From: a virus
Virus genome (UHGV): UHGV-0021788
DNA length: 64,000 nt
Reading direction: 5' to 3' (one strand)
Part shown: piece by piece, positions 23,084 to 58,175 of the stretch
Position numbering within the stretch: the stretch's first letter is position 1
Layout: every line of letters begins with the position of its first letter
Position numbers and translations under genes: made by a program
Notes under the pieces: model-generated
Told to the model about the DNA's origin: nothing
The model's database searches: none
The model's input: the letters and a program-made list of their open reading frames with translations, nothing else

Positions 23084-23439
23084 ATGTTTATAAAAAACAT
23101 AGCAAACCTTTTGAATTGCTGGAAACCCCTAAAGCTTAATACACTACAACGTGGCTAGAAATGGCGAACGTGAATGTTACGAAAGTAGAAAAAAGTTGTT
23201 AAGATGATATATGGTTAAATCCTAAGTATTGTTAATAATGGGCAATCAGCAACTAAGATTCTAAATGATAATTTATCATATGAATAAAGTCCAACGACTA
23301 GAGCATAGCTCGTACACTCAAGCGAGTGGAAGTGGAAGGTGTCCTATAAATATAGGATAATGATATAGTCTAATCTCATATGAAAATATGAGCAGTCGAA
23401 AGACGGTATGTATGTGGCGAATACATATGAATATAAATG
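23084..23439 (+). mobile_element. Group I intron A (family 1, no ORF, ~356 nt)
   Basis: P 'gaattgctggaaa' (23117), Q 'aatcagcaac' (23243), R 'ccaacgactagag' (23292), S 'aatgatatagtc' (23360). P2 hairpin 'ctatgttt...aaacatag'; P9-like hairpin and 3' 'gaatataaatg'. Confidence 0.8.
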
Positions 23440-23809
23440 TTCAGATTTAGAGTTAGACGATTATATTTTTCTTGAAGATAGATATAATCAGATGCTTTTA
23501 GCCTATGATGATAAGAACCCTTCATCATTGTGGTCATATCAAGAAATATGTATGAATTATTTACTCCTTAGAAAAGATAGAGGAAATGTTCAACTTCAAA
23601 AAAGTATCCAAGAAATTAATAGTAAATTACAAGCAGATTGTAAAATGAAGTTATCACAAATAGATAATGATGATGATGATAATGCTTGTTTTGGAAAGTT
23701 TATAGATAAAATAGAATTATATGAACCATGTAATAAAAAATTACCATTCTTTGAAGATATAGATGGAATAAGACAATACTTAAAACGATGGAAACAAAAA
23801 GCCACGACT
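23440..23809 (+). CDS. Exon 2 of the terminase-small-like gene
   Basis: Open frame continuing from 23408 ORF; ends at 'gccacgact' before the intron B conserved block; in-frame with exon 3 by U/G-rule junctions. Confidence 0.45.
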
Positions 23810-24203
23810 GTATAGAAATATGCAGTGGACACAGATTTAATTGCAGGTAATTCCTAAAGCCTTACACCAAAACGGAAGGTGAAAACCTAAACGGCAACGG
23901 TACGAAAGTAGAAAAAACGTAAGGATGAATATAAGGTTAAATCCTAAGTATTCAAACATATTTATATATGTTAAAATGGATGTTCATGCAAGGAAGTTCT
24001 TAAGTGATATATTATTATATCATATGGAAAACCTTCAACGACTAGAGTTTAAATACTCGTAGGGTATAAGTGATTGATACTCGAAAAGGTCTGCCCTTAA
24101 CAGGTAGTGCTGAAGGTGAAGAAATAGTCTAGTCACTCTAGGAAACTAGGTGCTTAGAATTAACTAAGGTTTATAGTGTAGCGACTATAAATAAATATTA
24201 ACG
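23810..24203 (+). mobile_element. Group I intron B (family 1 variant, no ORF, ~394 nt)
   Basis: P 'taattgcaggtaattcc', Q 'ggatgttcatgcaagg', R 'ccttcaacgactagag' (24033), S 'agaaatagtctag' (24127). Its 5' and P/Q regions are near-identical to the TMP intron K. Confidence 0.75.
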
Positions 24204-24380
24204 TTCGTTTTGCCTTTTGCGAAGCAGTGGAAACTAGCTAAAAATGATGTATTAGAAGGAGAGGAAGGAATAGAGGATTATGAAGATGTAGATAAAATAT
24301 ATAATGAACAAAATAAAAATAAAGTCGAAGCAGAGAATGAAGTAGATAACGAGGTAGGTGAGGAAGACAATGACGAGTAG
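24204..24380 (+). CDS. Exon 3 of the terminase-small-like gene (acidic C-terminus '...EGEEGIEDYEDVDK...EEDNDE'), overlapping terL start
   Basis: 177-nt open frame ending TAG 24378-80, beginning directly after the intron-B terminal G. Confidence 0.45.
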   Translation, partial: FVLPFAKQWKLAKNDVLEGEEGIEDYEDVDKIYNEQNKNKVEAENEVDNEVGEEDNDE

Positions 24381-24920
24381 CGTAAAAGAAAATATCGAAG
24401 AAGAAAAAATACTTTCTGACGAAGTCATGAAAAGTCCTCATAAAAAAAGAAGAAATTTATCCCAAAGAAAAAAAGATAGATTAAATGAAGGTATGAAAAT
24501 ATGGACTGCATTCTATAGGTTAAACATCCATAGATTCGCACTCGATTTTTTGGGACTTAATTTATATCCGTTCCAAATTATATTGCTTTATATGATGAAT
24601 ATAATGTATAGCACTTGCCTAATATGTGCCAGAGGGTTATCGAAATCGTATATGACAGCAATATTTCTTTGTTGTAAAGCAATATTATATCCAAATAGTT
24701 TAATTGTAGTTTCTTGTTCAACTAAGGAGCAAGCCAGAAATCTTATAAAGGAGAAGATAGCTAAAGAACTATGTTCTCAGTCAAAAATGTTAAATAGAGA
24801 AATTGCTAAAGTAGTCACCGGTACTAATGAAACAGTGGTCATCTTCAATAACGGTAGTACTATTCAAGCGGTGAATGCTTCTCAAAATACAAGAGGTCTT
24901 AGATGTCATGTACTCGTGGT
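24358..24920 (+). CDS. Large terminase subunit, exon 1 (ATPase N-terminal part incl. Walker A)
   Basis: GTG start; 'CLICARGLSKSY' Walker A-like; ends '...RGLRCHVLVV' immediately before the expected Walker B 'DE'. Confidence 0.7.
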
Positions 24921-24989
24921 AGTAATCTGCCTAGATATACATATATATAAAAGTATATCCGTAATTGGGTAAAATCGGTAAAAGCTAAG

Positions 24990-25044
24990 TTTTACTTTAC
25001 ATTTTATAGTTATTATAGTATAATATAAGTAAGGAGGGGATATT
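24990..25044 (+). promoter_or_regulatory. Conserved promoter + RBS cassette (copy 4) inside intron C
   Basis: 'ttttactttacattttatagttattatagtataatataagtaaggagggg'. Confidence 0.6.
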
Positions 25045-25794
25045 ATGAGTAGAGTTGGTGAAAAAATTATTGATAATTATGGTGTTGAAATGGAAATTAT
25101 AGAATATACAAATTGTAAAAAAATAAAAGTAAGATTTAACGATGAATATGGAGTTATAATCAATACAAGATATGATTGTTTTATAGATAAGAGAATAAAA
25201 AACCCATATAGAAAATCATTTCAAGGAGTAGGATATATAGGTGTAGGTAAATATTCTTCAAAAAACACCGAAATAATGAATTGTTGGAGTAATATGTTAA
25301 AAAGATGTTATAAAGAAAACGGTAAAGATATAACATATGAAGATTGTTATGTTTGTGAAGAATGGCATAATTTTCAAAACTTCGCTAAATGGTATGAAGA
25401 AAATTATTATGAAGTAGATGGTAAATCTACATTTCTTGATAAGGATATATTATATAAAGGTAATAAAATATATTCTCCTGAAACTTGTGTGTTTGTACCA
25501 AGGTTAATAAATAATCTTTTTACCAAGAGACAAAATGAACGTGGCTTATATCCTATTGGTGTAGAACCATATAAAAACACAAATAAATTTATATCAATAA
25601 TTAGTGAAACTCATAGATATACAAAAACAAAAAGAACACATTTAGGTATTAGAGATACAATTGAAGAAGCATTTTATTTATATAAAATATATAAAGAAAA
25701 ATTAATAAAAGATATTGCAAATGAATATAAGAACGATATACCTAAAAAATTATATTATGCATTACATAATTATAAAGTAGAAATAACAGATTAA
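25045..25794 (+). CDS. Intron-encoded putative homing endonuclease / DNA-binding protein with AP2-like domain (different family from the other six)
   Basis: 'THLGIRDTIEEAFYLYKIYKEKL' resembles the AP2 DNA-binding domain common in phage HNH/NUMOD homing endonucleases. Lacks the 'LPFDFYLP' motif. No HNH/GIY-YIG motif recognised by eye. Confidence 0.45.
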   Translation: MSRVGEKIIDNYGVEMEIIEYTNCKKIKVRFNDEYGVIINTRYDCFIDKRIKNPYRKSFQGVGYIGVGKYSSKNTEIMNCWSNMLKRCYKENGKDITYEDCYVCEEWHNFQNFAKWYEENYYEVDGKSTFLDKDILYKGNKIYSPETCVFVPRLINNLFTKRQNERGLYPIGVEPYKNTNKFISIISETHRYTKTKRTHLGIRDTIEEAFYLYKIYKEKLIKDIANEYKNDIPKKLYYALHNYKVEITD

Positions 25795-26051
25795 ATAAAA
25801 TATGCCAATACCGAGTTAACTGATAAAATTAAAAAGTTGTCAGTAATGTAGAGCATAGAGATTGAACCTTTGTAAGAACTATTATATAATAGTTCTTTTT
25901 TGATTACAAAGAATAAAATATTTCCAAGAGTATCCAACACCTTATTGTATGAGGTGAAAATGTATGCCAAGCTTATAGGAAACTATAAGAGGTGGATGTG
26001 TGAATTGACACACTATTAATAGATAAAAAGCTCCACGATAAAACTTTGAGA

Positions 26052-26083
26052 TGAGTACAGAATGATACAAGGAGTAACATATA
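26052..26083 (+). CDS. Large terminase mini-exon 2 (32 nt) encoding '(V)DEYRMIQGVT' = Walker B
   Basis: Joining 24920|26052 gives '...VLVVDEYRMIQGV' (canonical TerL Walker B 'hhhhDE'). 5' exon ends in U, intron in G. Confidence 0.55.
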
Positions 26084-26442
26084 GCTCCCTATGTTTATAA
26101 AAAGCATAGAAAAACTCTTTAATTGCTGGAATATCCTAAAGCCAATTAAACTACAACGTAGAGTTAAAACTCAAGCGTGAACGTGGCGAAAGCAGAAAAA
26201 ATTAATTGGATAGCATAAGGTTAAATCCTAAGTGCTATAGACAATGGACAATCAGCAGGGAAGTCCCTTTAAAATGGGAAACCTTCAACGACTAGAACGC
26301 AAGTTCGTAGGGTGTAAGTGATTGACACTCGAAATGGGAGTTACCTAATTAAATAGGTAGTGATATAGTCTAGTCTTATATGAAAATATAAGCAGTTCAT
26401 AAGAGAACGTACATAATGTAGCGAATTATGTAGAATATAACG
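26084..26442 (+). mobile_element. Group I intron D (family 1, no ORF, ~359 nt)
   Basis: P 'taattgctggaat' (26120), Q 'aatcagcaggg' (26253), R 'ccttcaacgactagaac' (26293), S 'gtgatatagtctag' (26372). Confidence 0.8.
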
Positions 26443-26580
26443 GTTTTGATACCTTAAACTCAGTATTAAGACCATTCTTAAACTGTGTTAGAATACCAAA
26501 ATTTAAAAATAGAGATGATGGAAAATACGCAGATTATCCAACTGAGGAAAACCAAGAAATTTACTTAAGCAGTGCGTGGT
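26443..26580 (+). CDS. Large terminase exon 3 ('CFDTLNSVLRPFLNCVRIPKFKNRDDGKYADYPTEENQEIYLSSAW')
   Basis: Only open frame across this 138-nt segment between introns D and C'; frame-consistent with exons 2 and 4 under U/G-rule junctions. Confidence 0.5.
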
Positions 26581-26685
26581 AAATTCGTGCCACTTTATAT
26601 AGCGATATATAAAACAAATTGGGCAAAATCGGTCATAGTAAATCGTGAGATTAAGCTGATAAGAGAGACTAAGTATTGTTTAAAA

Positions 26686-26740
26686 TTTTACTTTTAATAA
26701 AAAATATAGTATAATATAAGTAATGGGGGTGAATATTAAA
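26686..26740 (+). promoter_or_regulatory. Conserved promoter + RBS cassette (copy 5)
   Basis: 'ttttacttttaataaaaaatatagtataatataagtaatggggg'. Confidence 0.6.
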
Positions 26741-27472
26741 ATGAATAAAATAACTACAGAAATAGCATTAAAACGAATTAATGATAAAATAAAAGAAACT
26801 AATACAACATTATATGTTGTTAATTTTGAATATGTAAAAAAGAAAAGTATAATTTATATGAAATGTAAAGTATGTGGAAAAGAAGTTGAAAGAGATTATT
26901 GGAGATTTATTCATGCAGGTGGAAAATGTGAATGCCAATATAAATATAGAAGATGGACTGAAGAAAGATGCATAGAATTAATAAAAAATAATGATTATAA
27001 TGATGAATATGAATTTGTAAATTTCAATACAGGAGCTAATATTACAATAAAACATAATATATGTAATCATGAATTTACTAGAGCTTCTTGGAATATAAAA
27101 GACAATGGTTTAAAATGTCCATCATGTTATCCACTTGATAGTGCAGGAGAATTGAATATTGAGAATTATTTAAAATCAAAAAATATTTTATATCAAAAAC
27201 AGAAAAGATTTAAAGGATGTAAAAATAAAAAGACATTACCATTTGATTTTTATTTACCACAATATAATTGTTGTATAGAATTCGATGGCGAACAACATTT
27301 TAAACCTGTCGAACACTTAGGTGGAGAAAAACACTATAATAATACAGTCATAAATGATGAAATAAAAAATGAATTTTGTAGAAAAAATAATATACTTTTA
27401 TTAAGAGTACCTTTTTATAAAATAAATGATGTAAATGATATTATTGAAAATTTTTTAAACAATATAAGTTAA
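26741..27472 (+). CDS. Intron-encoded modular homing endonuclease: 2 Cys/His DNA-binding-like repeats + C-terminal Vsr/DUF559-like (PD-(D/E)xK-variant) nuclease
   Basis: 'TLPFDFYLPQYNCCIEFDGEQHF...NILLLRVPF' matches the Vsr/DUF559 pattern (D...hIE.DG..H...R). ATG 26741 after 'GGGGGTG'. Confidence 0.65.
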   Translation: MNKITTEIALKRINDKIKETNTTLYVVNFEYVKKKSIIYMKCKVCGKEVERDYWRFIHAGGKCECQYKYRRWTEERCIELIKNNDYNDEYEFVNFNTGANITIKHNICNHEFTRASWNIKDNGLKCPSCYPLDSAGELNIENYLKSKNILYQKQKRFKGCKNKKTLPFDFYLPQYNCCIEFDGEQHFKPVEHLGGEKHYNNTVINDEIKNEFCRKNNILLLRVPFYKINDVNDIIENFLNNIS

Positions 27473-27712
27473 TACCGAGGTAAGATAGAAAATTAAAAAG
27501 TTCTATCCACCGTAACGCATAGAGATTGAACCTTTGTAAGAACTATTATATAATAGTTCTTTTTTAATTGCAAAGAATAAAATATCTCCAAGAGTGCCCA
27601 CTTCTATATTGTATAGAAGAAAATATATGCTGGACTGGGTATGAATCGACATACCATAATGCGAGGAAACTCCCAGAACTAGAGGATAAAAAGCCTTTAG
27701 GGTAACAAAACG

Positions 27713-28797
27713 TTGAGAATCATTGGAGTTATGACCTTTATTCTTCCCATGTTAAGAAAATGTTAGCAGGTGATGATTATTTTGTATGTAATCTGCCTTA
27801 TCAATTATCTGCCTATCATGGAATATTAACTAAAAAAAGAATACAAGATATTTTATCAGATGAGAATATGTCAGAAATATCATTTACGATGGAATTTGAA
27901 GCGTTATTTTATTCTGATAAAGATACTAGTTATTTTAAATCAAGTGATATATTACCTTGTAGAACATTAGAGTATGCATGGTATCCTCCAACACCAGAGG
28001 AATATTATAGAAATAAAAATAAAGAGAAAAAGAGTTATTATTTAAAGAAATTAAATGATAAAGAACTTAGAGTAATCAGTTGTGATATAGCTTTAATGAA
28101 CAGTAAAAATGGACATGACAATGATAATGCCGTATTTACTTTTATAAGAAGTATTCCAAAGAATCAAAATTATATATCACAAGTTTTATGGCAACAAACT
28201 CATGAAGGATACAAAGCTAAGCAATTAGCATTAAATATAAAAAGATTATATTTTGATACTCAAAGTGATTATATAGTACTAGATACTGCCGGTAGTGGTA
28301 TATCTGTATTAGATGAGTTAGGTGAATACACAACTGATGTAGAAAGAGGAATAGTTTATCCTCCATTAAAAGCAATGAATGATGAAAAATATGAAGAACG
28401 TTGTGGTTATTCAGAAGCACAAAAATCTATATTTTGTGTTAATGGTAGTACAAAGTTTAACCATGAAATTGCAGTAACTCTTAAAACAGCATTCCAAAAT
28501 AAAACCATTAGATTATTAAAAACACAATTTGAAGCAGATGATTTTATAGAGGGATATAATAAAATGTCTCCTAAAGAACAAGCTGATAAGTTGATGCCTT
28601 ATGTTCAAACTTCTTTAATGCAAGATGAAATAACTCAATTGGAATATGAAGTAAAAGATTCTTATATTAAACTTTATGAAACAACAGGTAAACGTAAAGA
28701 TAGATATTCAAGTTTAGCTTATGGTAATTACTTTATAAGAGAAAGAGAAAAAAAATTAAAGAAAAAGAAAAAAGGTGGATTAGCTAATCTATGGTAG
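27713..28797 (+). CDS. Large terminase exon 4 (nuclease domain)
   Basis: 'FENHWSYDL...RVISCDIALMNSKNGHDNDNAVFTF' (RNase-H-like nuclease first Asp motif); size and position before the portal gene. Confidence 0.7.
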
Positions 28798-30577: not shown

Positions 30578-31160
30578 TTGAAAGGAGGTGTAATTATGGA
30601 TAACAAGCTTAGACTACCTATTAGAAAATTTGAAAGTACAGATGAAGTTTTAGCTAATACAAATTTTAAAAAAGTTAAGATATACATTATGCATACAGGT
30701 GAAAATCTTAATGGTTCTGTATTTTCATTAGATAGTATAAATGATTCAATAGATACACTTGCAAACATTCCAATATTGGCATTTGTTGAAAAAACTGATG
30801 GACAAGATAATAAAGATTTTGCAGGACATGAAACTGATTTAGATATATTTACAGATAAAGATGGAACAATTAAAGTAAGAGAATATTATAAAGAAGTACC
30901 TATTGGAGTAATACCTGAAAGTAATGAATATTTCTTTGAAGAAAAAGATGGAGAAACATACTTAGGGTGTTATGGTTACATATGGAAATGTTATTCTAAT
31001 GATGCTTATGACATATTAGAAGAAGACCAAGAAAAAGAAGTCTCTATGGAAATTTATATAAATAATTGTTCTTATGATAGAAAACAAAGATGTAATATTA
31101 ATAAATTTGAATTTCTTGGAGTAACAGTTTTAGGTGCAAAATATCCAGGAGTAATTAGCT
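30578..31160 (+). CDS. Head-morphogenesis gene exon 1 (protease/scaffold-like N-terminal part); exon end approximate
   Basis: ORF (TTG start, 'GGAGGTG' RBS) runs into the intron E 5' block 'tccctatattaag'. Position between portal and capsid genes. Confidence 0.4.
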
Positions 31161-31362
31161 CCCTATATTAAGTGATTAGTATAGAAAATTCTCTGAATTG
31201 CTTGTAATCCCTAAAGTCAACTAAACTACAACGTGATTGGAAACGATGAGCGTGAACGTGGCGAAAGCAGAAAAAATTAGTTGAATGGTATATGGTTAAA
31301 CCCTAAGTACTTTTGCAATGGGTGTCTAGCAGGTAAGATTCTAAATTTATTTAAATTAAATG

Positions 31363-31416
31363 TTTGACTTTTAATAACAAAATAGGTATAATATAAGTAA
31401 ATGGGGAGGTGATTAA
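31363..31416 (+). promoter_or_regulatory. Conserved promoter + RBS cassette (copy 6)
   Basis: 'tttgacttttaataacaaaataggtataatataagtaaatggggagg'. Confidence 0.65.
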
Positions 31417-32505
31417 ATGGCATGGAATAAAAATTCTATAAAAGAATATATAGATAAAACACAATATGAATTAATTAATTTTAAAATATTCGATGGGTTG
31501 AATTCTATAATATTAATAAGATGTAAAAAATGTGAAGAAGTTTATGAAATAAAATTCAGCAACTTTAAAAGAAAAAAAGATAAGAATTATTGTAAGAATT
31601 GTGAATTTATAAATAAAAAGAATGAGCTTATCAATAAATGTATAGAATTTGCAAATGATATAAATTATAAAGTTCTTAATGTTTTTTACGAAAACGAAAG
31701 ATGGTTTGTCGAATTACAATGCAACAATGGTCATGCTTTATATATTACTAGAATTGAACATTTTTTAAACAATCATTTATGTAGACAATGTGCAAATGAA
31801 TCTTTGATTATATGGGATGAAAATGCTATTAAAGAAGCTATAGAAAAAGAGAAATATCAATTAATTGAGATTCTTGAAAATAAGGGATATGAAAGTAAGA
31901 TATCTATTTGGTGTGGTAATAAAAATCATAGCCCATATACAACATATTTTTCAGAATTTCAAAAAAATCATAGATGTAGACAATGTTATAGTGGAAGTAA
32001 AATAAAATGGAAAAAAGATGATATAATTTGTTATGTTGAAAAAGAAAAGGAAAAATTTATAGATTTTATAGAATATAATGGTTTCAATTCTACTATTAAA
32101 ATATTATGCGAAAAGCATGGAGAATACAAAATTAGATTCGACCATTTCATAGAAGGTCAAAGATGCCCTATATGTAAAGAATCTAAAGGAGAAAAGAAAA
32201 TAAGAGAAAATTTAGAAAAACTTAATATTGAATTTGAACACCAATATACTTTCAAGGACTGTAAATGTTATAAAGAATTGCCATTTGATTTTTATTTACC
32301 TCAATATAATATGGTTATAGAATATGACGGAGAACTACATTATCAAATAGTTGATTATTTTGGTGGATTAGATAAATTTATAAATATCAAAATAAGAGAT
32401 ACTATTAAAACTGAGTATTGCAAAAATAACAATATTAAACTTATAAGAATACCATATTGGAATTTTAAAAATATTGAAAAAATAATTTGTCAAGAATTTA
32501 ATTAA
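31417..32505 (+). CDS. Intron-encoded modular homing endonuclease: 4 Cys/His repeats + Vsr/DUF559-like nuclease
   Basis: 'ELPFDFYLPQYNMVIEYDGELHYQ...NIKLIRIPYW'. Repeats each ~60 aa with C..C/H...C..C spacing ('CKKCEE', 'CRQCANE', 'CRQCYSG', 'CPICKESKGE'). Confidence 0.65.
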   Translation: MAWNKNSIKEYIDKTQYELINFKIFDGLNSIILIRCKKCEEVYEIKFSNFKRKKDKNYCKNCEFINKKNELINKCIEFANDINYKVLNVFYENERWFVELQCNNGHALYITRIEHFLNNHLCRQCANESLIIWDENAIKEAIEKEKYQLIEILENKGYESKISIWCGNKNHSPYTTYFSEFQKNHRCRQCYSGSKIKWKKDDIICYVEKEKEKFIDFIEYNGFNSTIKILCEKHGEYKIRFDHFIEGQRCPICKESKGEKKIRENLEKLNIEFEHQYTFKDCKCYKELPFDFYLPQYNMVIEYDGELHYQIVDYFGGLDKFINIKIRDTIKTEYCKNNNIKLIRIPYWNFKNIEKIICQEFN

Positions 32506-32760
32506 ATAAATATGAATAAACTTCAACGACTATTGAAATAATTGTAAGAACCTTATCAGAGGTTCTTTTTGATTGCAATTAAAGTAAAGTACTCTTAAGT
32601 AAGAGGAAGTAGAGAATGTCTTATTTAATTAATGTAAGATGAAGTAGAAAATGTCTTATTTAATTAATGTAAGATAATGATATAGTCTCAACGTTTAGCG
32701 AAAGCTAAAGAAGTTCATAAGAGAACTGCGTAAGAATAACGAACTTATGTGAAGATATTG

Positions 32761-34562: not shown

Positions 34563-35017
34563 ATGAGACGAATGTCAGAATTAAATATAACTGATGTAAG
34601 AGATATGGCTTACAGTCTATATAAAGGTAAAACTGCTAATTTTGATGCTGAATCTGCAAATGAAGCTATCAAAAATATAATACTTAAAACAGCTGGATGT
34701 GAAGATGGTTGGGATATGTATAAATTCATGGATAACAAATACAAAGTATTTGCTATAATGAGAGAAATATTAACACCAGTTGTAGCTGAAAATGTTTTAG
34801 CAAGATTTGAATCTTGGGTAGACATAGAAGACATAGCTTTAGGTGATACTAAAGACTTTGAAATAATGAATCAAGAATTATTTGAAATAGGATATGTAGC
34901 TGATGGTACTTCTGAATTAAGAAGACAAAACTTAACTCATGGTAAAATCACTATGACTGGTTTCCAATTAGGAGCTAAATTATATACTGAATTTGACGAT
35001 TTTAGAAGGGGTAACTT
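34563..35017 (+). CDS. Major capsid protein exon 1
   Basis: ORF ends in the conserved intron 5' block ('tagacagccccctatgtttgtaaaaagcatag'). Joined product ~340 aa in head-module position, with strong RBS and a downstream hairpin. Confidence 0.55.
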
Positions 35018-35228
35018 AGTTTACTAGACAGCCCCCTATGTTTGTAAAAAGCATAGCAAATCCTTTTAATTGCTGGAAACTCCTAAAGCTCAATTCACTA
35101 CAACGTAGAGTTAAAACTCAAGCGTGAATGTTACGAAAGTAGAAAAAAGTAATTGAGATTACCCAAGGTTAAATCCTAAAGGTGAATGAATGGACAATCA
35201 GCAGGGAAGATTTTGATTAACACTTAAT

Positions 35229-43157: not shown

Positions 43158-43191
43158 TCAATCTATTAATAAGAAAGAGTGGTGGTAATTA

Positions 43192-48327: not shown

Positions 48328-48615
48328 TTGCCGTTTATATTAGAAATAATATAAATTATTAGAGGGCAAAATCGGTGAAGACTAAGTTTTTATAAATATG
48401 TTGATACCGAGATAACTTATTAGATTGCGAAAGGCTAATAAGTATTGTAGAGCATAGGAATTGAATAAATATAATATTCCCAAGAGTGCCCTCCATTCTA
48501 ACGTAAAAAGACGAGGATGAAAATATATGCCATACTGAGCTAGAATTGACTAGCTGATGAAAATGAGGGAAACCTCCAGAGCATAAGATAAAAAGCTTAT
48601 GGATAATAACAATAG
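48328..48615 (+). mobile_element. Group I intron H (family 2, no ORF, ~290 nt); boundaries approximate
   Basis: P 'aaaatcggtgaagactaagt' (48369), Q 'gataccgag' (48402), R 'gtagagcataggaattgaa' (48447), S 'gaaaatatatgcc' (48521), 3' 'gataaaaagcttatggataataacaatag'. Confidence 0.65.
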
Positions 48616-48640
48616 AAATTACGCTGGTTAGAATTAGCCA

Positions 48641-49008
48641 GGCTATATGGAAACATGTAGTACAAATCTCTTTTGAATTGCTGGAAAGGACTTAGAGCCT
48701 ATTGAACTACAACGTAGATGGAAACATCAAGCGTGAATGTTTAAAAATCAATAGGATTGTTTAATCAGCAGGTAAGATTCTAAGTAATAATTTTATATTA
48801 TTATATGAATAAACTTCAACGACTATCCCTTGGATGTTGAAATACATCAATAGGAGTACGGCTCAAGTGATTGGAGTGGGTGAGAATCCCTTAAATGGAA
48901 GTGGAAGAGGACTTATAAAGGTTCAAGATATAGTCTACTCTCGTAGGAAATCTACGAGCAGTCCTTTTTTGGACGGTATATGTGTAGCGAACATATATGA
49001 ATATTAAG
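48641..49008 (+). mobile_element. Group I intron I (family 1, no ORF, ~368 nt); 5' boundary approximate
   Basis: P 'gaattgctggaaagg' (48676), Q 'taatcagcaggtaagattc' (48764), R 'aacttcaacgactatccc' (48823), S 'aagatatagtctac' (48928), 3' 'gaatattaag'. Retains 'atgaataaacttcaacg', the sequence found at the 3' end of HEG insertions. Confidence 0.75.
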
Positions 49009-49396
49009 GAATAACTTTGCGATTTCATCTGATGGTGTAACAGAAGCATTACAACGTGGTGGTTCTGTATTATCTAACTATGGAGTAGATTTAAAAGATT
49101 CTATTGCAATGATAACTGGGGCAAATGAATCTTTACAAGACCCCGCTCGTATAGGTAATGGTTTAAAATCTATAGCAATTAACCTTTCAGGTATTAAAAC
49201 AAATGCAAAAACAGGTGCTCTTGAATTAAATAAAACAGCAAAAGCATTGCAAGAAACTGCTAAGATAGATATATTTACTGATAGTACTAAAACACAAGTT
49301 AAAGATGTTGTTACTATAATGGATGAAGTAAAAGATAAATGGGCTTCTTTAACTGATGTTGAACAAAAAGGATTGTCAGAAGCTATAGCTGGTAAT
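49009..49396 (+). CDS. TMP exon (conserved TMP core '...NNFAISSDGVTEALQRGGSVLSNYGVDLKDSIAMITGANESLQDPARIGNGLKSIAINLSG...')
   Basis: Open frame from the intron-I terminal G through 'AIAGN' at 49396; the downstream TAA (49400) and the next 50 nt are closed in all frames and so are intronic. Confidence 0.7.
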
Positions 49397-49768
49397 ATGT
49401 AAGATTAGTAAATTTATATAAATTTTTATAAAATACAAAAATCTTAAAATTGCCGTCTTTGATAGAAATATTAAAGATAATTAGAGGGATGTATCGGTGA
49501 AGCCTAAGTCGAAAGATATGGTAATACCGAGGGTATCTTAACAGAGAATATCCGTAACGCATAGGGAGTGAGCGATATTGTTAGCAATAACCTCCCCACG
49601 AGCTTCCTCCACGATTATATATAGGATAATCACTTATAGATGTTGCTACTATAAGTTCTAACGTTAAACGAGAGTGAAAATATATGCTGGACTTATGAGA
49701 AATCATAAGAAGTGGATGTGTGAATCGACACACTATTAATAGATAAAAAGCTCCACGATAACAAATCG
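49397..49768 (+). mobile_element. Group I intron J (family 2, no ORF, 372 nt)
   Basis: P 'gtatcggtgaagcctaagt' (49490), Q 'aataccgagg' (49521), R 'ccgtaacgcatagggagtgagcg' (49551), S 'gaaaatatatgctgg' (49677), P9 'gtggatgtgtgaatcgacacac...ctccacg'. Junction 49396(U)|49769 gives in-frame '...AIAGN-KTQAGVFQALMTGW...'. Confidence 0.75.
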
Positions 49769-52700
49769 AAAACCCAAGCCGGTGTATTCCAAGCATTGAT
49801 GACAGGTTGGGAAAGAGTTCGTCAATTCCAAAAAGAATACAATGAAGGTTGGATGATAGGTTCAGCCCAAAGAGAAAATGAAATCTTTATGGATTCCATT
49901 GCTGGTAAAATGAATACTTTAAAAGAAAATCTTAAAGGATTATTAACTAGCAATGTTACAACAGATATGTTTAAAGGTCTATTAGATGGTGCTAATAAAG
50001 TAGTAGAAGCAGTAGGAAAAATAAGTTCAAGCTTAGGTAAAATTGGTTCAGCTGGTGCTTTAGTAGGTATTTCATCTTTCGTAAAAACTTTAGCAAATTT
50101 GGATAAAGCTAAAACAATAGGTGGTGGTTTTACAGGATTTGATAAAGTTTTAGAAGTAATACAAGGTACTGCTGTTACTTCTTCTGGTGAAATAAAAACA
50201 CTAGGCGATAGTTTTAAAGAATTAGGTGTTAAGACAACTCTATCTAAAGTAGCATTAGGATTATTTAAAGGTGTATTAATGGGTATTGCATTTACTGCTG
50301 TTGTTAAAGGAATAGATGCTATGGTAAAAGCATGGGATAATTATATTCATGCAACAGAAAATGCAGTAAAGGCTTCTAAGGAAAGACAAGATGGATTTAG
50401 AGATGAAGCACAAACATTAAGTACTAAAAAATCAAGTCTACAAGAAATAGCTAAAGAATATGATAATTTAAATAATAAATCTGATAAAACTGCTGAAGAT
50501 TTAACTAGATTAAATGAATTAAAACAACAAATAGGACAAATAGCTCCTGACCTTGTTAAAGGATATGATTCAGCAGGTAATCCAATATTAAATCTTACTA
50601 CTAGTATGCAAGGTTATATAGCTGAATTAGATAAAGCAATTGCTAAACAACGAGAATTATATAATTATGAAACTAAAAAACAAGCACAAGAATACATGAA
50701 GAAAAATGACACTAAAAATGGTGCTCAAGACCCAGATAGGAATTCTTATGAAACTGAATTAAATCATCTTCAAAATGCAAATGATAGAAAAACTAGAGAA
50801 GAAAAAAGATATACTGGTAGCTTAAAAAATATTATTAAAGATAGAAATAAATATAGAGAAGACCAAGAAAAAAGCATTAATGAAAGATTAGAAAGGATTA
50901 GAAACGCACAAACAGAAGTTAATAATAGAGATGCTACAATTGAAGATAATTATGTTAACGAATTTAATAAGAAAACCAAATTAGCTGAAAAAGAACAAAA
51001 TAAATTTGCTACCTTTATGAAAGGGTTAAATTGGGGTACTTATGGCGAAGCAGAAGCCAATAGAATGTCTAAAGGTTTACAAAAATTATCTGAAAAGACT
51101 GCATTCACAACTCAAGAGATGACAAAAGGATTATCAGGTAGTCTATCAAAAAAAGTTTCAGAAGAAATTTCTAAAGTAAATGCAGAATTCAAAAAAACAA
51201 ATGCTGTAAATGAATGGGGAAAAGGTTTAAGAAAAATAGCTAATGAAACAGGAAAATTTGATTTTTCAAATTGGAGTAATTACTTATCAGAAGTTCAAAC
51301 TCGTTTTGAACAAGGAGTAAGTACTAATGAACAATATACACATTCATTAGGAATTATGGCTGATGCTATGGAAGATTTAACTGGTATAGATTCAGATGTA
51401 TTCTTACCAGCTTTAAAAGGTGGAGCAGATTTAGAAGAAGCCTTTAAATCAGCAACTGAAGGCTTAAATGGTTTTATGAGTGCTTATGGTTCTTCTACTG
51501 CAAAATTACAACAAGGTGATTCATTTGCTAAAAAATTAGAATCTCAATTTAAAGAACTTCAAAATTTTGAAACTGAATTTGAAGGTCAATATGAGATGCA
51601 AGGTAAAGTTAGTGTAGATTGGTTAGTAGAACAAAAAGATAATGAAGATTTACCTAAGCAATTAAGAACTATAATAGATGCAGTAACAAAAGATGGAGAA
51701 GTAACAGAAGTAGAAGAAAAATTAGTATTAGCTTGTGAAACAGAAATAAAAGATAAAGGTAAATTAGAACAAAGCACAATAGATGCAATAAATCAAGTTA
51801 TGGATGGAACATGGGATGTAAATAAAACTATTGAAATAGGTGGTATGGAATTTACATCATCTGAAATAAGAGAATTAATGTCATTGGCAGACCAATTAGG
51901 TATATCTTTAGAAGGTTTAAATATTGGTGATACAGGATTAGAAGGAGAAAATCAAAAAGCTCAAGCATTAAAAGATACAATAGATTCAATTACAGATAGA
52001 GATATAAAAGTAGCAATAGAAGCAGAAGGATTTGAGAATTCAGACCAAGTTAACAACATAATGACAGTTATTGACCAAATAGATGGAAAACAAGCCAAAG
52101 TCGATTTTATAGCAGATGCTTCTCAATACTTTATGGAAAATGATAGTGTTGAATCAGCAATAAAAGCTATGCCTGATGAAATAAAACTTAAATATAATAT
52201 TGGTGTTGAAGGCGATGAAAGACTAGAAGGAATACAAAGTAGACTTGAAAAATTACCAAAAGATATTAGAACTATGGTATATGCTCAAACATATGGTGTT
52301 GAAAATGTTGAAATGCTAGAAAACATAGTAGATGCTTTTGGTGGAAAAACTGCAACAGCAATATTACAGTTAGATGGTATAGATGAAGCTCTTAGAAATG
52401 CTAGTACATTTGAGGAACAATTAAAAATAATTGGAGATTTTATATGTCAACCTGGAGTAGAAATAGAAGGTAAAGATGACATAATTAAAACAATTGATGA
52501 AATATTAAAGAAATTAAAAGAAACAGATGAAAAAGAAAGTAATCCTAAAATAAATGTAGAAGGAGATACTTCTGGTGCAGAGAAAGTAGAAAAAGAAGTA
52601 GACAATGTAGGCAATAAAAAAGGTACTGCTAAAGCAGATGTGGATGGAGATACTTCTGGTGCAGAGAAAGTAGAAAAAGAAGTAGACAATGTAGATGGTA

Positions 52701-55700
52701 AAGAAGGTACTGCTAAGACAAAAATAGAAGGAGATACTTCTGGAGCTGAAAAAGTAAAGAAAGAAGTAGATAATTTAGCTGTCAACAAAAAAGGTACGGT
52801 TACTTTATTAGTAAATGGTCAAGAAAAAATAGCTGAAGCTAAAGTTGTCAAAGGTCAATTAGAAGTAGATGGTAAAGCAGTTACAAGTATTTCTGTTAAT
52901 GGTAAAGACCAATTACCAATAGCTATTAATGAAAAAGGTCAATTAGAAGTAAATGGTCAAGCTATAACTGATGTAACTGTAAAAAATGGAGACCAATTAA
53001 AATTAACAAGAAATGAAAAAGGTCAATTAGAAGTAAATGGTCAAGCTATAACTGATATCAAGGTATATGGGAAAGAAAATGTTAAAGATGCAAAAAAAGA
53101 TGTTGATGATTTAACCAAAGATAATAAAAATGTTAGTATTAACATTGATGTTTCATTAAAAGAAACTGTTGGTGAAATATTATCAAGATTTGGATTAAAT
53201 AAGAAAACAGAAAATGTTGAAATTAATGTAACATGTAATGATAATGCAACTCCAGTATTAGAAAAAATAATGGCAAGACAAGATAAAACTATACAAATAA
53301 AAGTAGACTGCCAAGATAATGCAACATCTAAAATAAACAGTATAGCTAAAATAGGAAATAAAACTGTAACAGTTACAATAAATTGTCAAGATAATGCAAC
53401 ATCTAAAATAAACAGTATAGCTAGTATGGGTAATAAATCTGTAACAGTTACAATAAATTGTCAAGATAATGCAAGTTCTACAATAAATAGAGTTACAAGT
53501 GCACCTTCTTCTAAAGCAATAAATGTTGTAGTAACTTGTACAAATGGTGGAGCAGTTCTTAATACTCTTTCTCAATTAGCTAGTAAAGTAATACCTAGTA
53601 AAAAATTTACTATAAACTGTACAGATAGTGCTAGTAGTGTAGTAAGTAGAGTTAATGGTTTAAAAATATCTGATAAGAAATTTACTATAAATTGTACAGA
53701 TAATGCAACTGCTAAAATAAATAAAGTTATTAGTAAAAAAATACCAAATAAATCATTTACTATAAGTTGTACTGATAATGCTAGTAGTAAATTAAGTAGT
53801 ATTATAAGTAAAATAAGTAATATTCGTAGTAAATCAGTAACAATTACTACTAATCATGTAAGCACAGGCGACCATTCATCTGTTGGTGAACCAACAATTG
53901 TTGATTTACAACCTCAACCATTTAGTAGTACTCAAGCTTCTAATCCTCAAGTGCAATCATTAGGAGAACAAGTTCAAGTATTAAGCGATAGTGTGCAACA
54001 ACAAACTGACAACAATAATGAAGTTAGCGTAATGGCTAAGAAAACATATAAAGCTAATATTGATACAGGTTTAACAGTAAGTGCAGTTAAATATAATATT
54101 GATTTATTAACTAACATGACTAATATGCTTAAAAAATTAGGAACTCAAGTTGATATATTAAAAGCTAAACAAGAAAGAACTTGGGGTACTGCAAGTGCTA
54201 AGTTACTTAGAAATCAAATTTCTTTACTAACTAAACAACAAGATTTAACTAAAATAAATATTAAAAACATGGAAGGTATGGCTAAAAAACTTAAAGGTAG
54301 TTTACAAAAACAAGGATTTAAGTTTAAAGATGATGGAACTATAAGTAATTACAATAGTAAGCTTATAAAAATGCAAAAAAATGTTGAAAGTTTAGAGAAA
54401 GCTGAAAAAGCACTAGAAGACCAAATAAGTAAAACTGAAAAACAAATTTCAAAATCTGAAAAGAAATCTTCAAGTAAGAAGAAATCAACTAGTAAGAAAA
54501 AGAAAAGTACTAGTAAGAAAAAGAGTACGAGCAAAAAGAAGAAAACTTCAAGCAAGAAGAAATCAACTAAGAAAAAGAGCACTAAGAAGAAAACTACTAA
54601 GAAGAAGAGTGCTAGTAGAAGCAATAGAAAAACTACATCAAGTAAAGCTAGTAAAAAGAAGACTACTAAGAAGAAAAAATCAACTAGTAAGAAAAAAAGT
54701 ACATCAACTAAGAAGAAGAGTACTAAAAAGAGTACTAAAAAGAAGACTACTTCTAAGAAGAAATCAACCACTAAGAAGAAAAGTACATCTTCAAGCAAGA
54801 AATCAAAAGCAACTAAAGCATTAGAAAAGAAAAAGAGCGGATTAGAAAAGAAAAAGGATGCAATAAGCAAACAATTAGAAAAAGCACAAAAAGAATTATC
54901 AGAAACTCAAAGCAAATTAAATGAATATTATAATTTACAATTTAGTGAAATTCCTGAAGCTCAACAACAATGGGAAGAATATGCTAATGCTATAGCAGAA
55001 GCTAAGGCAGAAATAATTAGATGTGAATTAGAAGCTAAAACATTCTTTAAGACAGTTAAGATGGAAATGAAAGATGCTATGATTAGCAGAAATGAAACTT
55101 GGGCAGATACATTTATGTTGAAGGCTGATTTAAGTAGTTGGTCTAAAGCAATAGGATATATTAAAGAAGCTAATAAATTATTAGCAAAAAATCAACAACA
55201 TCAACAATCAAAATTAGAAACAGCTCAAGCAAGAGCAGAAGATAACAAGGCATTTTTAAAGAAACAAGGATTTAAATTTGATAAAAATGGATATGTAACA
55301 GGTGCTGAAAAAACTTTACAAAAACTTAAAAAGAAGAAATCATCACAAGAATATGATGCTATAAAAGAAGCATTTGATAGTTATGTTGATGATATGTATG
55401 AAAATATTCCCAAAGCTGAAAATGAATGGTGGAAATTAGAACAGGAAATAAAAGAAAATGAAAGACAAATAAAAGAAACTACTAAATCTATGAATGATTT
55501 AGTTAATTCAGCTAAAGTAGATAAATTAACTAGACAATTTGATGTACTTTCAAATACTTTAGATATATTAGACCTTAAAATGGAACGTGCTTATGGAGCT
55601 AATAAAATAGACTATATGAAACAACAACTTGATATATTATCTAATATGAAAAGTAAGAATCAAGAAATCATTAATCAAAATACTGAGTTATTAAATAATA

Positions 55701-56615
55701 GTAAGAAACAATTAGTTAAATATGGCATTACATTTGATGAAGATGGCAATATAGACAATCTATCAAAAGCATTGAAAAAATTAGATAATCTACAAGATAT
55801 GGAAGATTTAAAAGATTTAGCTGATGAATATAATGATTATAAAGATTCAATAGATGATGCTAGTAAATCAATTGAAGAAGAAACTAATAAACAACTTGAA
55901 TTAAAAGATTCAATGATGGAAATTAGAGAAGAAATGAGAAAACTTAGAGATGATGCATGGGTTAAAACTTATGAAAATGGTCTAAAAGTTATTCAAAATC
56001 GTATTGATACAATAGATTCTTTATTAGATTTAGAAGATGAAAATCAATTTAGTTTACTAAATCAAAAAATTGAAGAATATAAGAATTTAACTAAAGCGAC
56101 TGAGGATAGTTTGGCTTATCAAAAACATAGAAAAATCACTATGCAAAAAACATTGATTGATTATGGTTTCACTATTAATGATGATGGTACAATAGATGGA
56201 ACTGCTAATAAATTAGAACAACTTAAAAATACATTATCTGAAACTGAATTTGGTATAGTAAGTGATACATTAGAAGATTATTTTGATACTGCTTTAGATA
56301 CAATTCCTGAATTAGAAAGAGAATTAATAAAATATCAAAAAGATTTAAAAGATATACAAAATACTAAACTAGAAAAGACTAAAACTATTGAAGAAAAAAT
56401 TACTGAAATATATAACGATGAAATAGATAAAAGAACTAAAAAGATACAAGAAGAAGCAGAAGCACAAACTAAAGCACTTAATAAAGCCAAAGAATCTTAT
56501 CAGAGATGGAGAGACGAAGTTGACTATAAAGATGATTATAATAAACAATTAAAAACTGTTGAAGATTTACAAAAGAAAATAGAAATAGCAAAACGAGATG
56601 ACAGCCTAACTGGGT
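49769..56615 (+). CDS. TMP main exon (~2282 aa)
   Basis: Open frame from the intron-J terminal G (upstream of annotated 49796 start) to 'DSLTG'; TM-like hydrophobic hairpins near the N-terminus of this exon ('LGLFKGVLMGIAFTAVVKGI'), long coiled coils. Confidence 0.7.
52557..52800 (+). repeat. Three tandem ~84-nt in-frame repeats in TMP ('EGDTSGAEKVEKEVDNV..K.GTAK')
   Basis: Copies starting at about 52563, 52646 and 52730. Confidence 0.75.
52845..53060 (+). repeat. Tandem 'KGQLEVNGQAITD..V' repeats in TMP
   Basis: 'gaaaaaggtcaattagaagtaaatggtcaagctataactgat' duplicated (52930, 53015) plus a diverged first copy. Confidence 0.7.
53215..53840 (+). repeat. ~9 tandem Cys-containing ~20-aa repeats in TMP ('TINCQDNATSKINSIA' / 'FTINCTDNA..K...')
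   Basis: Repeated 'aattgtcaagataatgcaa' / 'aattgtacagataatgc' units. Confidence 0.7.
54460..54820 (+). repeat. Lys/Ser/Thr low-complexity tract (~120 aa of 'KKKSTSKKK...') inside TMP
   Basis: Continuous 'aagaagaaatcaactagtaagaaaaag' style repeats; composition almost purely K/S/T. Confidence 0.8.
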
Positions 56616-56825
56616 AATGTTGCCCTAGTCGTAAAGTAATTTGCGACTGAAAATAGATTTAATTGCAGGTAATCCCTAAAGCTCTACACCACAATATATC
56701 TGAAAAGAATATATGAAGGTACGAAAGTAGAAAAAACGTAGAGATTCTCATATGGTTAAATCCTAAGTGAGAGTAACAATGGGTGTTCATGCAAGGAAGA
56801 TTCTAAATTAAATTATTTTAAATAT

Positions 56826-56877
56826 TTTACTTTTAATAAAATAAGCAGTATAATATAAATAAGGAAGGGGTGAAATT
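56826..56877 (+). promoter_or_regulatory. Conserved promoter + RBS cassette (copy 9)
   Basis: 'ttttacttttaataaaataagcagtataatataaataaggaagggg'. Confidence 0.6.
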
Positions 56878-58002
56878 ATGAAAACTAAGTGGACAAAAGA
56901 AGCAATAATAAAATATATAGAGGAACAAGATTATATTTTTATAAATTTTATAAAATTTGATAAATTAAGCTCAAGAATATTAATAAGATGTAATAATAAA
57001 AAGCATAAACCATATGAAGTTACTTTTGCTAATTTCAAAACTGGGAAAAGATGTCCAAAATGCAGTGAAATAAAAAGAAGAAAAAAAAGAACAATATGGA
57101 ATAAAGAAAAAATAATTGATTTTGTAGAAGATAATAACTATGAATTTATTGAATTTGTTAAATTTGATAAAATTGAAAGTATAATTAAGGTATGGTGTAA
57201 AAATTTAAAACATGAACCATATAATGTTAAATTTGCAAATTTTAAAAATGGACAAAGATGTAGAAAATGTTCTGATGAAATAAAAAGTAAAAAATTTTCG
57301 CATAATTATGAATATGTCAAAGAATATATTGAATCATTTGGATATAAAATGTTATCAAACGAATATATAAATTTACATAGCGAAATAAAAATATTATGTG
57401 ACAAACATGGGATATATAAGACAACATTTCAATTATTTAAAATGGCGAAATATAAATGCCCAAAGTGTTCGGATGAACATAGAGGAGAATATCATAAATT
57501 AAATTATGAATATATTAAAGAATATATTGAATCATTTGGATATGAAATATTATCAAATGAATATATAAATATGAAAACAAATATATTGGTAAAGTGTCCA
57601 AATGGTCATAAATCATATTTTACTAATTTTGATAGGTTTAAAAGAGGAGACAGATGCCCTTATTGTAACGAATCTAAAGGTGAGAAAAAAATTAATGAGA
57701 TTTTAAATAAATATAATATGAATTTTAAATCACAATATAAATTTAATAATTGTAAAAGTAAAAGAGAATTACCATTTGATTTTTATATATCTGATTTAAA
57801 TATAGCGATAGAATATGATGGAATACAGCATTATAAAATAATAGAATATTTTAGTGGACTTGATGGTTTCATAACCACTAAAATACATGATGTTATAAAA
57901 ACAAGATATTGTGAAGATAATAATATAAAATTAATTAGAATACCGTATTGGGAATATGATGATATAGAAAGTATATTAATAAAAGAACTTAATTTAAAAT
58001 AA
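56878..58002 (+). CDS. Intron-encoded modular homing endonuclease: 4 Cys/His repeats + Vsr/DUF559-like nuclease
   Basis: 'ELPFDFYISDLNIAIEYDGIQHYK...NIKLIRIPYW'. Four ~65-aa repeats each with C/H...C..C ('CPKCSE', 'CRKCSDE', 'CPKCSDE', 'CPYCNESKGE'). Confidence 0.65.
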   Translation: MKTKWTKEAIIKYIEEQDYIFINFIKFDKLSSRILIRCNNKKHKPYEVTFANFKTGKRCPKCSEIKRRKKRTIWNKEKIIDFVEDNNYEFIEFVKFDKIESIIKVWCKNLKHEPYNVKFANFKNGQRCRKCSDEIKSKKFSHNYEYVKEYIESFGYKMLSNEYINLHSEIKILCDKHGIYKTTFQLFKMAKYKCPKCSDEHRGEYHKLNYEYIKEYIESFGYEILSNEYINMKTNILVKCPNGHKSYFTNFDRFKRGDRCPYCNESKGEKKINEILNKYNMNFKSQYKFNNCKSKRELPFDFYISDLNIAIEYDGIQHYKIIEYFSGLDGFITTKIHDVIKTRYCEDNNIKLIRIPYWEYDDIESILIKELNLK

Positions 58003-58175
58003 TTTAACATGAATAACCTTCAACGACTAGAATGCGAATTCGTAGGGTGTAAGTGATTGACACTCGAAAAGGTCTACCCTTAATATTAAGGTGAAGAAAT
58101 AGTCTAGTCTCATATGAAAGTATGAGCAGTTCATAAGAGAACGGTATATGTTTAGCGAACATATATGAATATAAG

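Follow-up and report, generated by a model that had tools for sequence, protein, structure and literature searches.

Twelve probable mobile group I introns of two ribozyme lineages in the late morphogenesis module of an uncultured tailed phage

The three group I introns of phage T4 (td, nrdB and nrdD; subgroup IA2) carry an endonuclease open reading frame (ORF) in a peripheral helix, start with UAAUUG…, contain P7.1/P7.2 hairpins and home at co-infection; all lie in nucleotide-metabolism genes, none in virion genes, and their 5' splice sites are canonical. Here, we describe a locus at which these intron features recur, homing as a predicted trait: a 64,000-nucleotide (nt) stretch of the virus genome UHGV-0021788 (hereafter the window), whose late morphogenesis module has, in our estimate, been colonised by 12 mobile group I (IA) introns of two ribozyme lineages, families 1 and 2 (probability about 0.92). 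The Twort-type IA2 introns of the Herelleviridae share the P7.1/P7.2, P9, P9.1 (GTTCATAAGAGAAC) and P9.2 modules with family 1 and sit in the same host genes (terL and tail tube, with three introns in Twort orf142 and two in Twort terL), while the terL introns of Romulus and Remus encode EDxHD endonucleases of the family found here (phrog_559, VSR/EDxHD). Short internal exons are likewise common to both systems (~22 nt for Twort exon 3; 12 and 26 nt in the window), and exon skipping is documented for Twort and SIOphi. However, Twort has two or three introns per gene and about five in two genes, whereas 12 introns are spread over six genes in 35 kb of the window, with the capsid and tape measure genes among those affected. 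The two systems also differ at the 5' splice site, where Twort and phage K introns follow a U(-1) paired with G, whereas the predicted last exon nucleotide in family 1 is G in seven of eight introns and A in the eighth.

Similar systems have been surveyed more broadly. In the Bastillevirinae, IA2/IA3-like introns reach three per gene in terL and carry phrog_559 VSR-like endonucleases, as in the window, and a small internal exon and exon skipping have been observed (PMC11878797). That subfamily has 45 introns in total and no more than six per genome (one genome has six in two genes), and no capsid, tube or tape measure introns were reported, in contrast to the present case (PMC11878797). Jug phages also have many group I introns that split terL and other essential genes, and their splicing has partly been confirmed by metatranscriptomes; at an average of 18.5 introns per genome, they make the claim of an earlier reading of the window from its letters alone (hereafter the sequence-only reading), that phages usually carry zero to three, outdated (PMC12880540). 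Jug introns average ~206 nt and occur about once per 20 kb of genomes of 360-402 kb, compared with one per 2.9 kb in a virion module here (PMC12880540). For Cluster J mycobacteriophages, spliced group I introns have been described in siphovirus capsid and tail genes (PMC3706429), but host phylum and intron lineage are unrelated to those considered here. Group I introns in phage virion genes and intron-rich phages are already established, and the present case is an extreme example: what is unusual is the local density, not the phenomenon itself. Its distinctive features are this density, the micro-exons, a pan-clade polymorphism, a second IA lineage and a possible non-U splice site.

We identified 12 introns between positions 23,072 and 58,177, all on the plus strand, and named them I1-I8 (family 1, n = 8) and F2a-F2d (family 2, n = 4). 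They are 295-1609 nt long and add up to 10,110 nt (28.8% of positions 23072-58177; one per 2.9 kb); six contain an ORF and six do not. The in silico analysis established the intron core and its covariation, the precise boundaries, the restored reading frames, the polymorphism between alleles and the families to which the endonucleases belong. The eight core motifs quoted by the sequence-only reading were found at the places it gave. Family-1 P elements (AATTGCTGGAAA-like) lie at 23114, 23839, 26121, 31196, 35068, 40612, 48676 and 56661, and the corresponding R elements (TTCAACGACTA) at 23290, 24034, 26284, 32522, 36195, 41552, 48815 and 58019. A search of the window for the R element gave nine matches against 1.2 expected, eight of them in this region, and every family-1 copy lies 139-1358 nt 3' of an AATTGC(T/A)GG P element. 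The family-2 order AATCGGT…ATACCGAG…GCATAG…AAAATATATGC occurs four times, and all 12 introns have the P, Q, R and S elements in the correct order (P3-P4-P6, P7-P3'-P8). Profile hidden Markov models of the 5' and 3' intron halves, built from the window copies (which match by construction), detected exactly eight and four copies on the coding strand only. No further copies were detected in the whole 64 kb, none outside 23-58 kb, and tblastn with the intron ORFs revealed no additional endonuclease copies in the window.

Both families show the architecture of subgroup IA. Family 1 consists of P1, P2, P3, P4-P5 with an extension, P6 (where the ORF lies), P7, P7.1, P7.2, P8, P9, P9.1 and P9.2, with P7 as GACTA/TAGTC, a 3' tail GAATATAA-NN-G and P3 helices that vary in the alignment (e.g., CCTTTT/GGAAGG, CAGATT/GGTCTG and ACTCTT/GGGAGT). 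RNAalifold on 18 family-1 3' halves recovered P7, P7.1, P8, P9 and P9.2, with double compensatory changes at 20 of the 28 predicted pairs. In family 2, a short P4-P5, which harbours the ORF, is followed by P6, P7 (GCATA/TATGC), P7.1(/P7.2), P3', P8 and P9 with extensions; RNAalifold recovered P7, P7.1 and P8, and 9 of 16 pairs were compensatory. Its long-range P3 is formed by different complementary helices in different copies (TTGGGT/ATCCAA, TGGGC/GCCCA, TCAATC/GATTGA, GAGAAC/GTTCTC, GAGGGC/GCCCTC and GAGGGA/TTCCTC). The P7.1/P7.2 hairpins, which are a mark of subgroup IA in the Michel-Westhof classification, follow GACTAG in family 1 or GCATAG in family 2, between P7 and P3', and show compensatory changes. 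These structures assign both families to subgroup IA, and family 1 appears related to the Twort/K-type IA2 introns. Introns in 397 GenBank phage records resemble family 1 at the nucleotide level; these records include Staphylococcus (248), Bacillus, Enterococcus, Lactococcus and Clostridium phages (c-st and D-1873), and that of Clostridium phage D-1873 is annotated with a 'Group I catalytic intron'. Family 2 gave no meaningful match among GenBank phages and is an IA-type lineage without a close relative there, missed by the standard Rfam threshold.

The covariance-model search proposed by the sequence-only reading did return group I matches. We used the Rfam model RF00028 (gathering threshold, 50 bits), with scoring that covered the ORF-less introns. 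At the gathering threshold, the whole 64-kb window yielded I1 only (85.1 bits), and a scan of 40 kb at E <= 10 gave two matches, adding I2 (44.5 bits, E = 2.8e-8). Short sub-ranges (25950-26500 and 48300-49800) recovered I3 (72.8 bits) and I7 (68.9 bits), and in such ranges F2c and F2d were also found (36.0 bits, E = 3.6e-7, and 28.2 bits, E = 7.9e-5), so that the absence of I3 and I7 from the whole-window scan is an effect of the speed filter rather than a true absence. Two orthologues that lack the homing endonuclease gene (HEG) scored 53.7 bits (I4 in the relative L001) and 54.0 bits (I8 in L007). In family 1, therefore, the threshold was reached by I1, I3, I7 and the HEG-less orthologues of I4 and I8. 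Family 2 stayed below the threshold, with significant E-values for F2c and F2d, and its membership therefore rests on core architecture, covariation and exact excision; the RF00028 alignments placed P3, P4, P7 and P8 where expected, in family 2 as well. Routine annotation would badly undercount such introns, given that the full 64-kb cmscan missed two (I3 and I7) that score above 50 bits in short ranges. The practical lesson is that gene callers fragmented every one of the six host genes and that a whole-window Rfam scan detected one intron in 12.

Excision of the 12 segments restored six continuous frames of 336, 603, 595, 338, 183 and 4,329 codons. The upstream frame stops 1-17 codons into each interruption, and with the chosen boundaries, whose register is fixed by intron-less alleles, all 12 introns end in the terminal G (omega-G); both observations agree with the earlier description of a stop just inside each intron and a frame that reopens after a terminal G. 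Whereas the unspliced pieces match separate halves of single PHROG profiles, each spliced product gives one contiguous match. All genes, introns and ORFs described below lie on the plus strand. Split gene 1 (22590..24380; exons 22590-23071, 23440-23791 and 24204-24380), upstream of terL, holds two ORF-less family-1 introns, I1 (23072..23439, 368 nt) and I2 (23792..24203, 412 nt), and its 336-aa spliced product covers positions 2-276 of 286 of phrog_3314 in one stretch. The terL gene (24358..28797; exons 24358-24920, 26049-26074, 26443-26580 and 27713-28797; 603 aa spliced; weak Pfam matches to Terminase_6N and TerL_ATPase) is interrupted three times, by F2a (24921..26048, 1128 nt) at the Walker-B VVDE motif, by the ORF-less I3 (26075..26442, 368 nt) and by F2b (26581..27712, 1132 nt). 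The phrog_3313 head-module gene (30578..33974; exons 30578-31151 and 32761-33974) contains I4 (31152..32760, 1609 nt) and encodes a 595-aa spliced product that matches positions 19-469 of 480 of its profile. In the major capsid gene (34563..36913; exons 34563-35011 and 36346-36913), removal of I5 (35012..36345, 1334 nt) gives a 338-aa protein that matches phrog_4088 over positions 4-331 of 332 (E = 1e-86) and, weakly, Pfam Phage_capsid.

The tube-like virion gene (40374..42070; exons 40374-40554 and 41700-42070; 183 aa spliced) is interrupted by I6 (40555..41699, 1145 nt) and is a homologue of a split gene in Alicyclobacillus phage KKP_3916. Four introns occupy the tape measure gene (43192..58795; exons 43192-48320, 48616-48627, 49009-49393, 49769-56614 and 58178-58795; 4329 aa spliced, with a PhageMin_Tail domain in exon 3), namely the ORF-less F2c (48321..48615, 295 nt), I7 (48628..49008, 381 nt, with a short P5 region) and F2d (49394..49768, 375 nt), and I8 (56615..58177, 1563 nt). 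The sequence-only reading had distributed the introns over these genes as two, three, one, one, one and four, and its split ORFs were correct, but three of its six gene names were positional guesses: the labels 'terminase-small-like', 'scaffold-like' and 'tail tube' derive from gene position and from PHROG families whose function is unknown or generic. Pfam gave weak labels or none for the gene-1, phrog_3313 and tube-like proteins, and these three names therefore stay positional.

Two of the restored exons are very short. A 26-nt terL exon between F2a and I3 (26049..26074) encodes (V)DEYRMIQG(G) and is contiguous with its flanks in the intron-less alleles of L005 and L006, and a 12-nt tape measure exon, AAATTACGCTGG, between F2c and I7 (48616..48627) equals (V)NYAG of the intron-less L034 allele. 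Each of these micro-exons thus lies between adjoining introns of different families; skipping of the 12-nt exon would stay in frame with loss of NYAG, and skipping of the 26-nt exon would frameshift terL. In a separate observation, the N- and C-terminal TerL pieces (window 24358-24972 and 27760-28797) correspond to phrog_15503, phrog_26582 and phrog_24618, all of 'unknown function', families that were probably created from intron-split terminase genes of reference phages.

We next compared the window with uncultured viral contigs of 173-204 kb (IMG/VR 3300045988_*, here L001-L008 and L029-L034) that are 93-99% identical to it at the nucleotide level. Eleven of the 12 introns are absent to the nucleotide from at least one of these relatives. 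The exact deletions comprise 368 nt for I1 (in L005), 412 nt for I2 (L001), 368 nt for I3 (L001 and L003), 1132 nt for F2b (L003; U at -1 and a terminal G), 1334 nt for I5 (L001, L004, L029 and L034), 375 nt for F2d (L029) and 1563 nt for I8 (L008). F2a has intron-less alleles in L005 and L006 and HEG-less versions in L001 and L003. The I6 site is uninterrupted in L001, L030 and L033, with an allele, GGAACATTGACA, equal to the predicted spliced product, and the region spanning F2c, the micro-exon and I7 is represented in L034 by uninterrupted coding sequence of equal length. For I4, no intron-less allele was found among the relatives; its spliced junction, PG|AMGED, can be aligned gap-free with KGAMGSN of the uninterrupted phiCD211 gp20005 (…LGSDVKGAMGSNC… in phiCD211 against …LGAKYPGAMGEDC… in the predicted product). 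Alignment of spliced products to uninterrupted homologues, which had been suggested earlier, gave full single-profile matches and an ungapped I4 junction. The proposal of the sequence-only reading that these segments are group I introns is borne out by covariance-model matches, a covarying core, six restored frames, exact absence for 11 of 12 introns and the phiCD211 bridge for the remaining one.

These comparisons also bear on whether the segments are introns at all. Free-standing endonuclease cassettes, coding insertions or inteins, pseudogene debris, or metagenome mis-assembly of repeats might mimic such a pattern, given that the window comes from an uncultured phage and that separate PHROG families for the TerL halves (phrog_15503 and phrog_26582) show how common split annotation is. 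Nevertheless, six of the interruptions have no ORF whatsoever, upstream frames run into stops soon after each boundary, the 12- and 26-nt exons could not be genes of their own, covariation is seen in the ribozyme core, and independent contigs are colinear and differ by clean presence or absence only. We consider these explanations highly improbable and retain the group I intron reading.

The same-site presence/absence polymorphism that characterises mobile introns extends well beyond the window. At least 13 additional family-1 or family-2 sites, uninterrupted in the window, are occupied in the relatives: in terL at ~24522, 24637, 24738 and 24868 (L005/L006/L003), in the portal gene at 29733 (L003-L006), in the tube-like gene at ~40520 (L001/L029/L030/L033), 41716 (L030) and 41810 (L001/L029/L034), and in the tape measure gene at ~48302, 49130 (L029), 49165 (L031/L033/L034/L007), 56490 (L008) and 58395 (L007/L008). 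The terL gene of L006 appears to hold at least seven introns. Adding these sites to the window introns gives a clade total of ~25 insertion sites in this single module, within a shared gene order in which contigs differ mainly by the presence or absence of intron segments. Some relatives also contain extra segments of 0.8-1 kb within I2, F2c and F2d (~1 kb inside I2 in L003 and L005; 769 nt inside F2c in L030 and L032), which are presumably endonuclease genes. With six or seven near-identical genomes and ~25 sites, the clade can serve as a natural experiment on homing, co-conversion and the cost that introns impose on late genes. In L029, a 611-nt insertion at the start of the tape measure gene (11030-11625; window ~43190-43200) lacks the ribozyme signatures of both families and, instead of an intron, may represent a free-standing ORF.

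The 5' splice site of family 1 departs from the expected pattern. Its exon P1 stem is followed by a U (A in I2) opposite a G of the guide sequence, an arrangement that resembles the canonical U·G pair. However, reading frames and intron-less alleles indicate that the apparent wobble U lies outside the mRNA and place the exon end one nucleotide before it. In a register test, the excised length was fixed by the intron-less allele and a register ending in G was sought; the only such register left G at -1 in I1, I2, I5 and I8 and A in I6, and with the adopted boundaries the -1 nucleotide is G in I1-I5, I7 and I8 and A in I6. The predicted junctions read …CGTTGGGG|TTCAGATT… at I1 and …AACTGGG|CAAAAACG… at I8. 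We infer that family 1 would be cut after G (A in I6), Watson-Crick paired to the guide, with the apparent wobble U as intron nucleotide 1. Such cleavage would break the rule by which 'virtually all' group I introns are preceded by U (PMC2504315).

The alternative is that the introns are real and that family 1 keeps the canonical splice site, behind the U of its U·G pair, the offset arising from another terminal nucleotide or 3' site. In its favour, the P1 architecture (exon stem, then U·G) is shared with phage K lys-I1, whose U belongs to the exon; in the Rfam alignment, the family-1 U coincides with the conserved U of the model; and at I5 a U-retaining product lacking the nucleotide after the conserved G equals the intron-less allele. 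For I3 and I7 the adopted register fits, but a fully canonical U(-1)/terminal G is also in frame, which counts against a departure from the rule. Retaining the U would nevertheless end I1, I5, I6, I8 and I2 in U, C, C, C and U, respectively, introduce a UAA stop into the tape measure frame at the I8 junction, shift the frame at other introns, and replace Thr by Ile at I6 relative to three intron-less alleles. Moreover, I2 and the KKP_3916 intron have no U whatever at the splice site, and the conserved GAMG at I4 (as in phiCD211) is obtained only with an exon ending in G. We regard canonical splicing of family 1 as unlikely.

Controls run through the same procedure gave the canonical U(-1)/terminal G throughout. 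These comprised all four family-2 introns (GGU|A…GCC, with F2b and F2d placed by the register test), the family-2 intron at ~49165 of the relatives, phage K lys-I1 and three Twort tube-gene introns, and the non-U result in family 1 is therefore not an artefact of the method. Among the additional family-1 sites in the relatives, -1 is G in the portal gene and at ~41810, ~58395, ~40520 and ~41716, and C at ~56490. The single site with U at -1 is ~49130, and even there the intron starts with a U of its own. Two cultured phages show the same arrangement. In the tube gene of KKP_3916, the junction GGAG|C…G|AT gives GQGDYS, parallel to KKGDNY in the window, and in the portal gene of Bacillus phage vB_BceH_LY2 the intron reads GGAG|UAAC…CGG|CG, with a predicted junction peptide 96.6% identical to uninterrupted Bastille-type portals over all 59 residues. 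The arrangement is seen at ~15 insertion sites in the clade and in both of these phages. Neither intron is annotated: that of KKP_3916 (L038; OQ846916.1, 24.7-25.1 kb) splits a tube-like gene recorded as two hypothetical proteins, and that of LY2 (L040; ON366411.1, 112.5-114.3 kb) carries two 'transposase' ORFs 3' of the ribozyme, in an IStron-like arrangement. The loci of Silviavirus DELF3 and Clostridium phage D-1873 gave no information on splice sites.

In most cases, the guide G opposite the first U of the intron is equally able to pair with the nucleotide that opens the 3' exon (U or C); the intron at ~56490 has A as its guide base and U as both partners. Such dual pairing fits an ordinary exchange between P1 extension and P10. 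We slightly favour the view that a sub-lineage of Twort-type IA2 introns has given up the U·G wobble requirement, with G, A or C at -1 (U at one site, ~49130 in L029), and that the intron's own first nucleotide, usually U, pairs with the next guide base, which then pairs with the 3' exon. If true, freedom from a target U could explain the invasion of so many sites in one module. If confirmed by complementary DNA (cDNA), non-U splicing would challenge the textbook 5' splice-site rule, and it could be relevant to ribozyme engineering, such as the design of circular RNAs without sequence scars. In the literature searched, coverage of which was incomplete, we found no phage group I lineage described as non-U, and novelty is not proven.

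Several other arrangements were tried and rejected. An alternative P1 for I2 (hairpin ACUGUAUAGAAAUAUGCAGU, the P1 of Rfam) corresponds to P2 in the ~41810 intron of the relatives, and was also rejected because the frame of the 3' exon is under purifying selection. A canonical I4 junction (PGVED) requires a two-residue gap relative to phiCD211. Shifted registers and alternative downstream G residues failed to reconcile a canonical site with family 1. As for sequence context, six family-1 introns (at 23072, 26075, 31152, 35012, 40555 and 56615) start with UAA, and the insertion sites of both families lie mostly in or beside glycine codons (GGN), the preceding sequence being always GGU for family 2 and GG(A/G)G, UGG or GGAA for family 1.

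We further examined the endonuclease ORFs, which occur in six introns within loop P6 in family 1 and loop P5 in family 2. The F2a ORF (25045..25794, 249 aa) matches the HNH endonuclease family phrog_953 (E = 2.5e-55), with a weak AP2 domain match. The other five match the phrog_559 profile (E from 1e-50 to 1e-75): F2b (26723..27472, 249 aa, E = 1.3e-50), I4 (31417..32505, 362 aa, E = 9e-67, with treble-clef zinc-finger repeats), I5 (35261..36187, 308 aa, E = 9e-65), I6 (40823..41536, 237 aa, E = 1.4e-59, with a weak match to the nuclease-like DUF2726) and I8 (56878..58002, 374 aa, E = 1e-75, with CapR-homology and zinc-ribbon repeats). They are paralogues of 34-46% identity with a common C-terminal domain and a variable number of N-terminal zinc-ribbon repeats, and the motif …IE(F/Y)DG.QH… is visible in the endonuclease translations. 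A PDB sequence search with two of the endonuclease ORFs gave no significant match. Proteins of phrog_559 have a VSR-endonuclease signature and occur in terL introns of Bastillevirinae, and the same study classes the terL-intron endonucleases of Romulus and Remus as EDxHD (PMC11878797). These similarities suggest that the five endonucleases form one family with zinc ribbons and a VSR/EDxHD-like nuclease domain, and this family is present in both ribozyme scaffolds (F2b in family 2; I4, I5, I6 and I8 in family 1). Both family-2 endonuclease ORFs are preceded by TAGTATAATATAAGTAA(G/T)GGGGG (25010-25044 and 26700-26722), a -10-like box followed by a Shine-Dalgarno sequence, which suggests a promoter and ribosome-binding site of their own within the intron loop.

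The late genes would be transcribed with all 12 introns in place, and ribosomes arriving from an upstream exon would be halted by the in-frame stops inside the intron. Each intron is predicted to fold into a P1-P9 core with P7.1/P7.2 (and P9.1/P9.2 extensions in family 1), to be excised by two guanosine-initiated transesterifications and to leave its exons joined. Only fully spliced mRNAs would yield the gene-1 protein, TerL and the phrog_3313, capsid, tube-like and tape measure proteins, so that virion assembly would require a dozen splicing events. Intron-less alleles met at co-infection would be cleaved by the endonucleases and receive a copy of the intron, which could account for the presence/absence mosaic among relatives.

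Some points weigh against a uniformly active set. Self-splicing, like endonuclease activity and the homing route, is predicted from sequence features; some introns may need protein cofactors or splice poorly; and I2, F2c and F2d score below the RF00028 gathering threshold. Accordingly, some of the 12 may be decayed or cofactor-dependent, with host genes that are poorly expressed or that require a helper factor or intron-less co-infecting relatives. An endonuclease gene is missing from six introns, either through loss or because it was never there, and P1 helices span only 3-5 bp. In Bastillevirinae, four of eight introns were spliced only in infected cells (PMC11878797). On the other hand, every core element and the terminal G are kept in all 12 introns and the exons are open. 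Among I2-bearing alleles, the opening 45 nt of the 3' exon show five substitutions, none of which changes an amino acid of the restored frame, and the same introns persist in several of the 93-99% identical genomes. We judge such decay or dependence rather unlikely, though with somewhat more weight than canonical splicing of family 1, and continue to favour a set of mobile, self-splicing introns.

Finally, we considered the source phage. The ORFs at 22.6-58.8 kb all lie on the plus strand and match phage head and tail families, including the large terminase, portal (phrog_2739), capsid family phrog_4088, virion protein phrog_2729 and tape measure; the 23-58 kb region represents the late morphogenesis module of a tailed phage that is large and AT-rich, distant kin of phiCD211 and SPbeta-like phages. 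A megablast search of 22 kb against GenBank phages returned a single 114-nt intron fragment, and a close cultured relative is therefore absent from that set; likewise, GTDB genomes scanned with the portal protein gave zero matches. No description of this phage clade was found in the literature, whose coverage was incomplete, and novelty is not proven. The portal protein shares 31% identity with portals of Clostridioides phages of the phiCD211 group. In the phrog_3313 gene, a long Asp/Glu/Lys-rich low-complexity insert at ~33000-33300, with a duplicated …KEDESCKKKNH… motif, overlaps spurious minus-strand ORFs. The spliced 4,329-aa tape measure protein implies a very long tail, and long internal duplications are visible in the translation of its N-terminal 1,700 aa.

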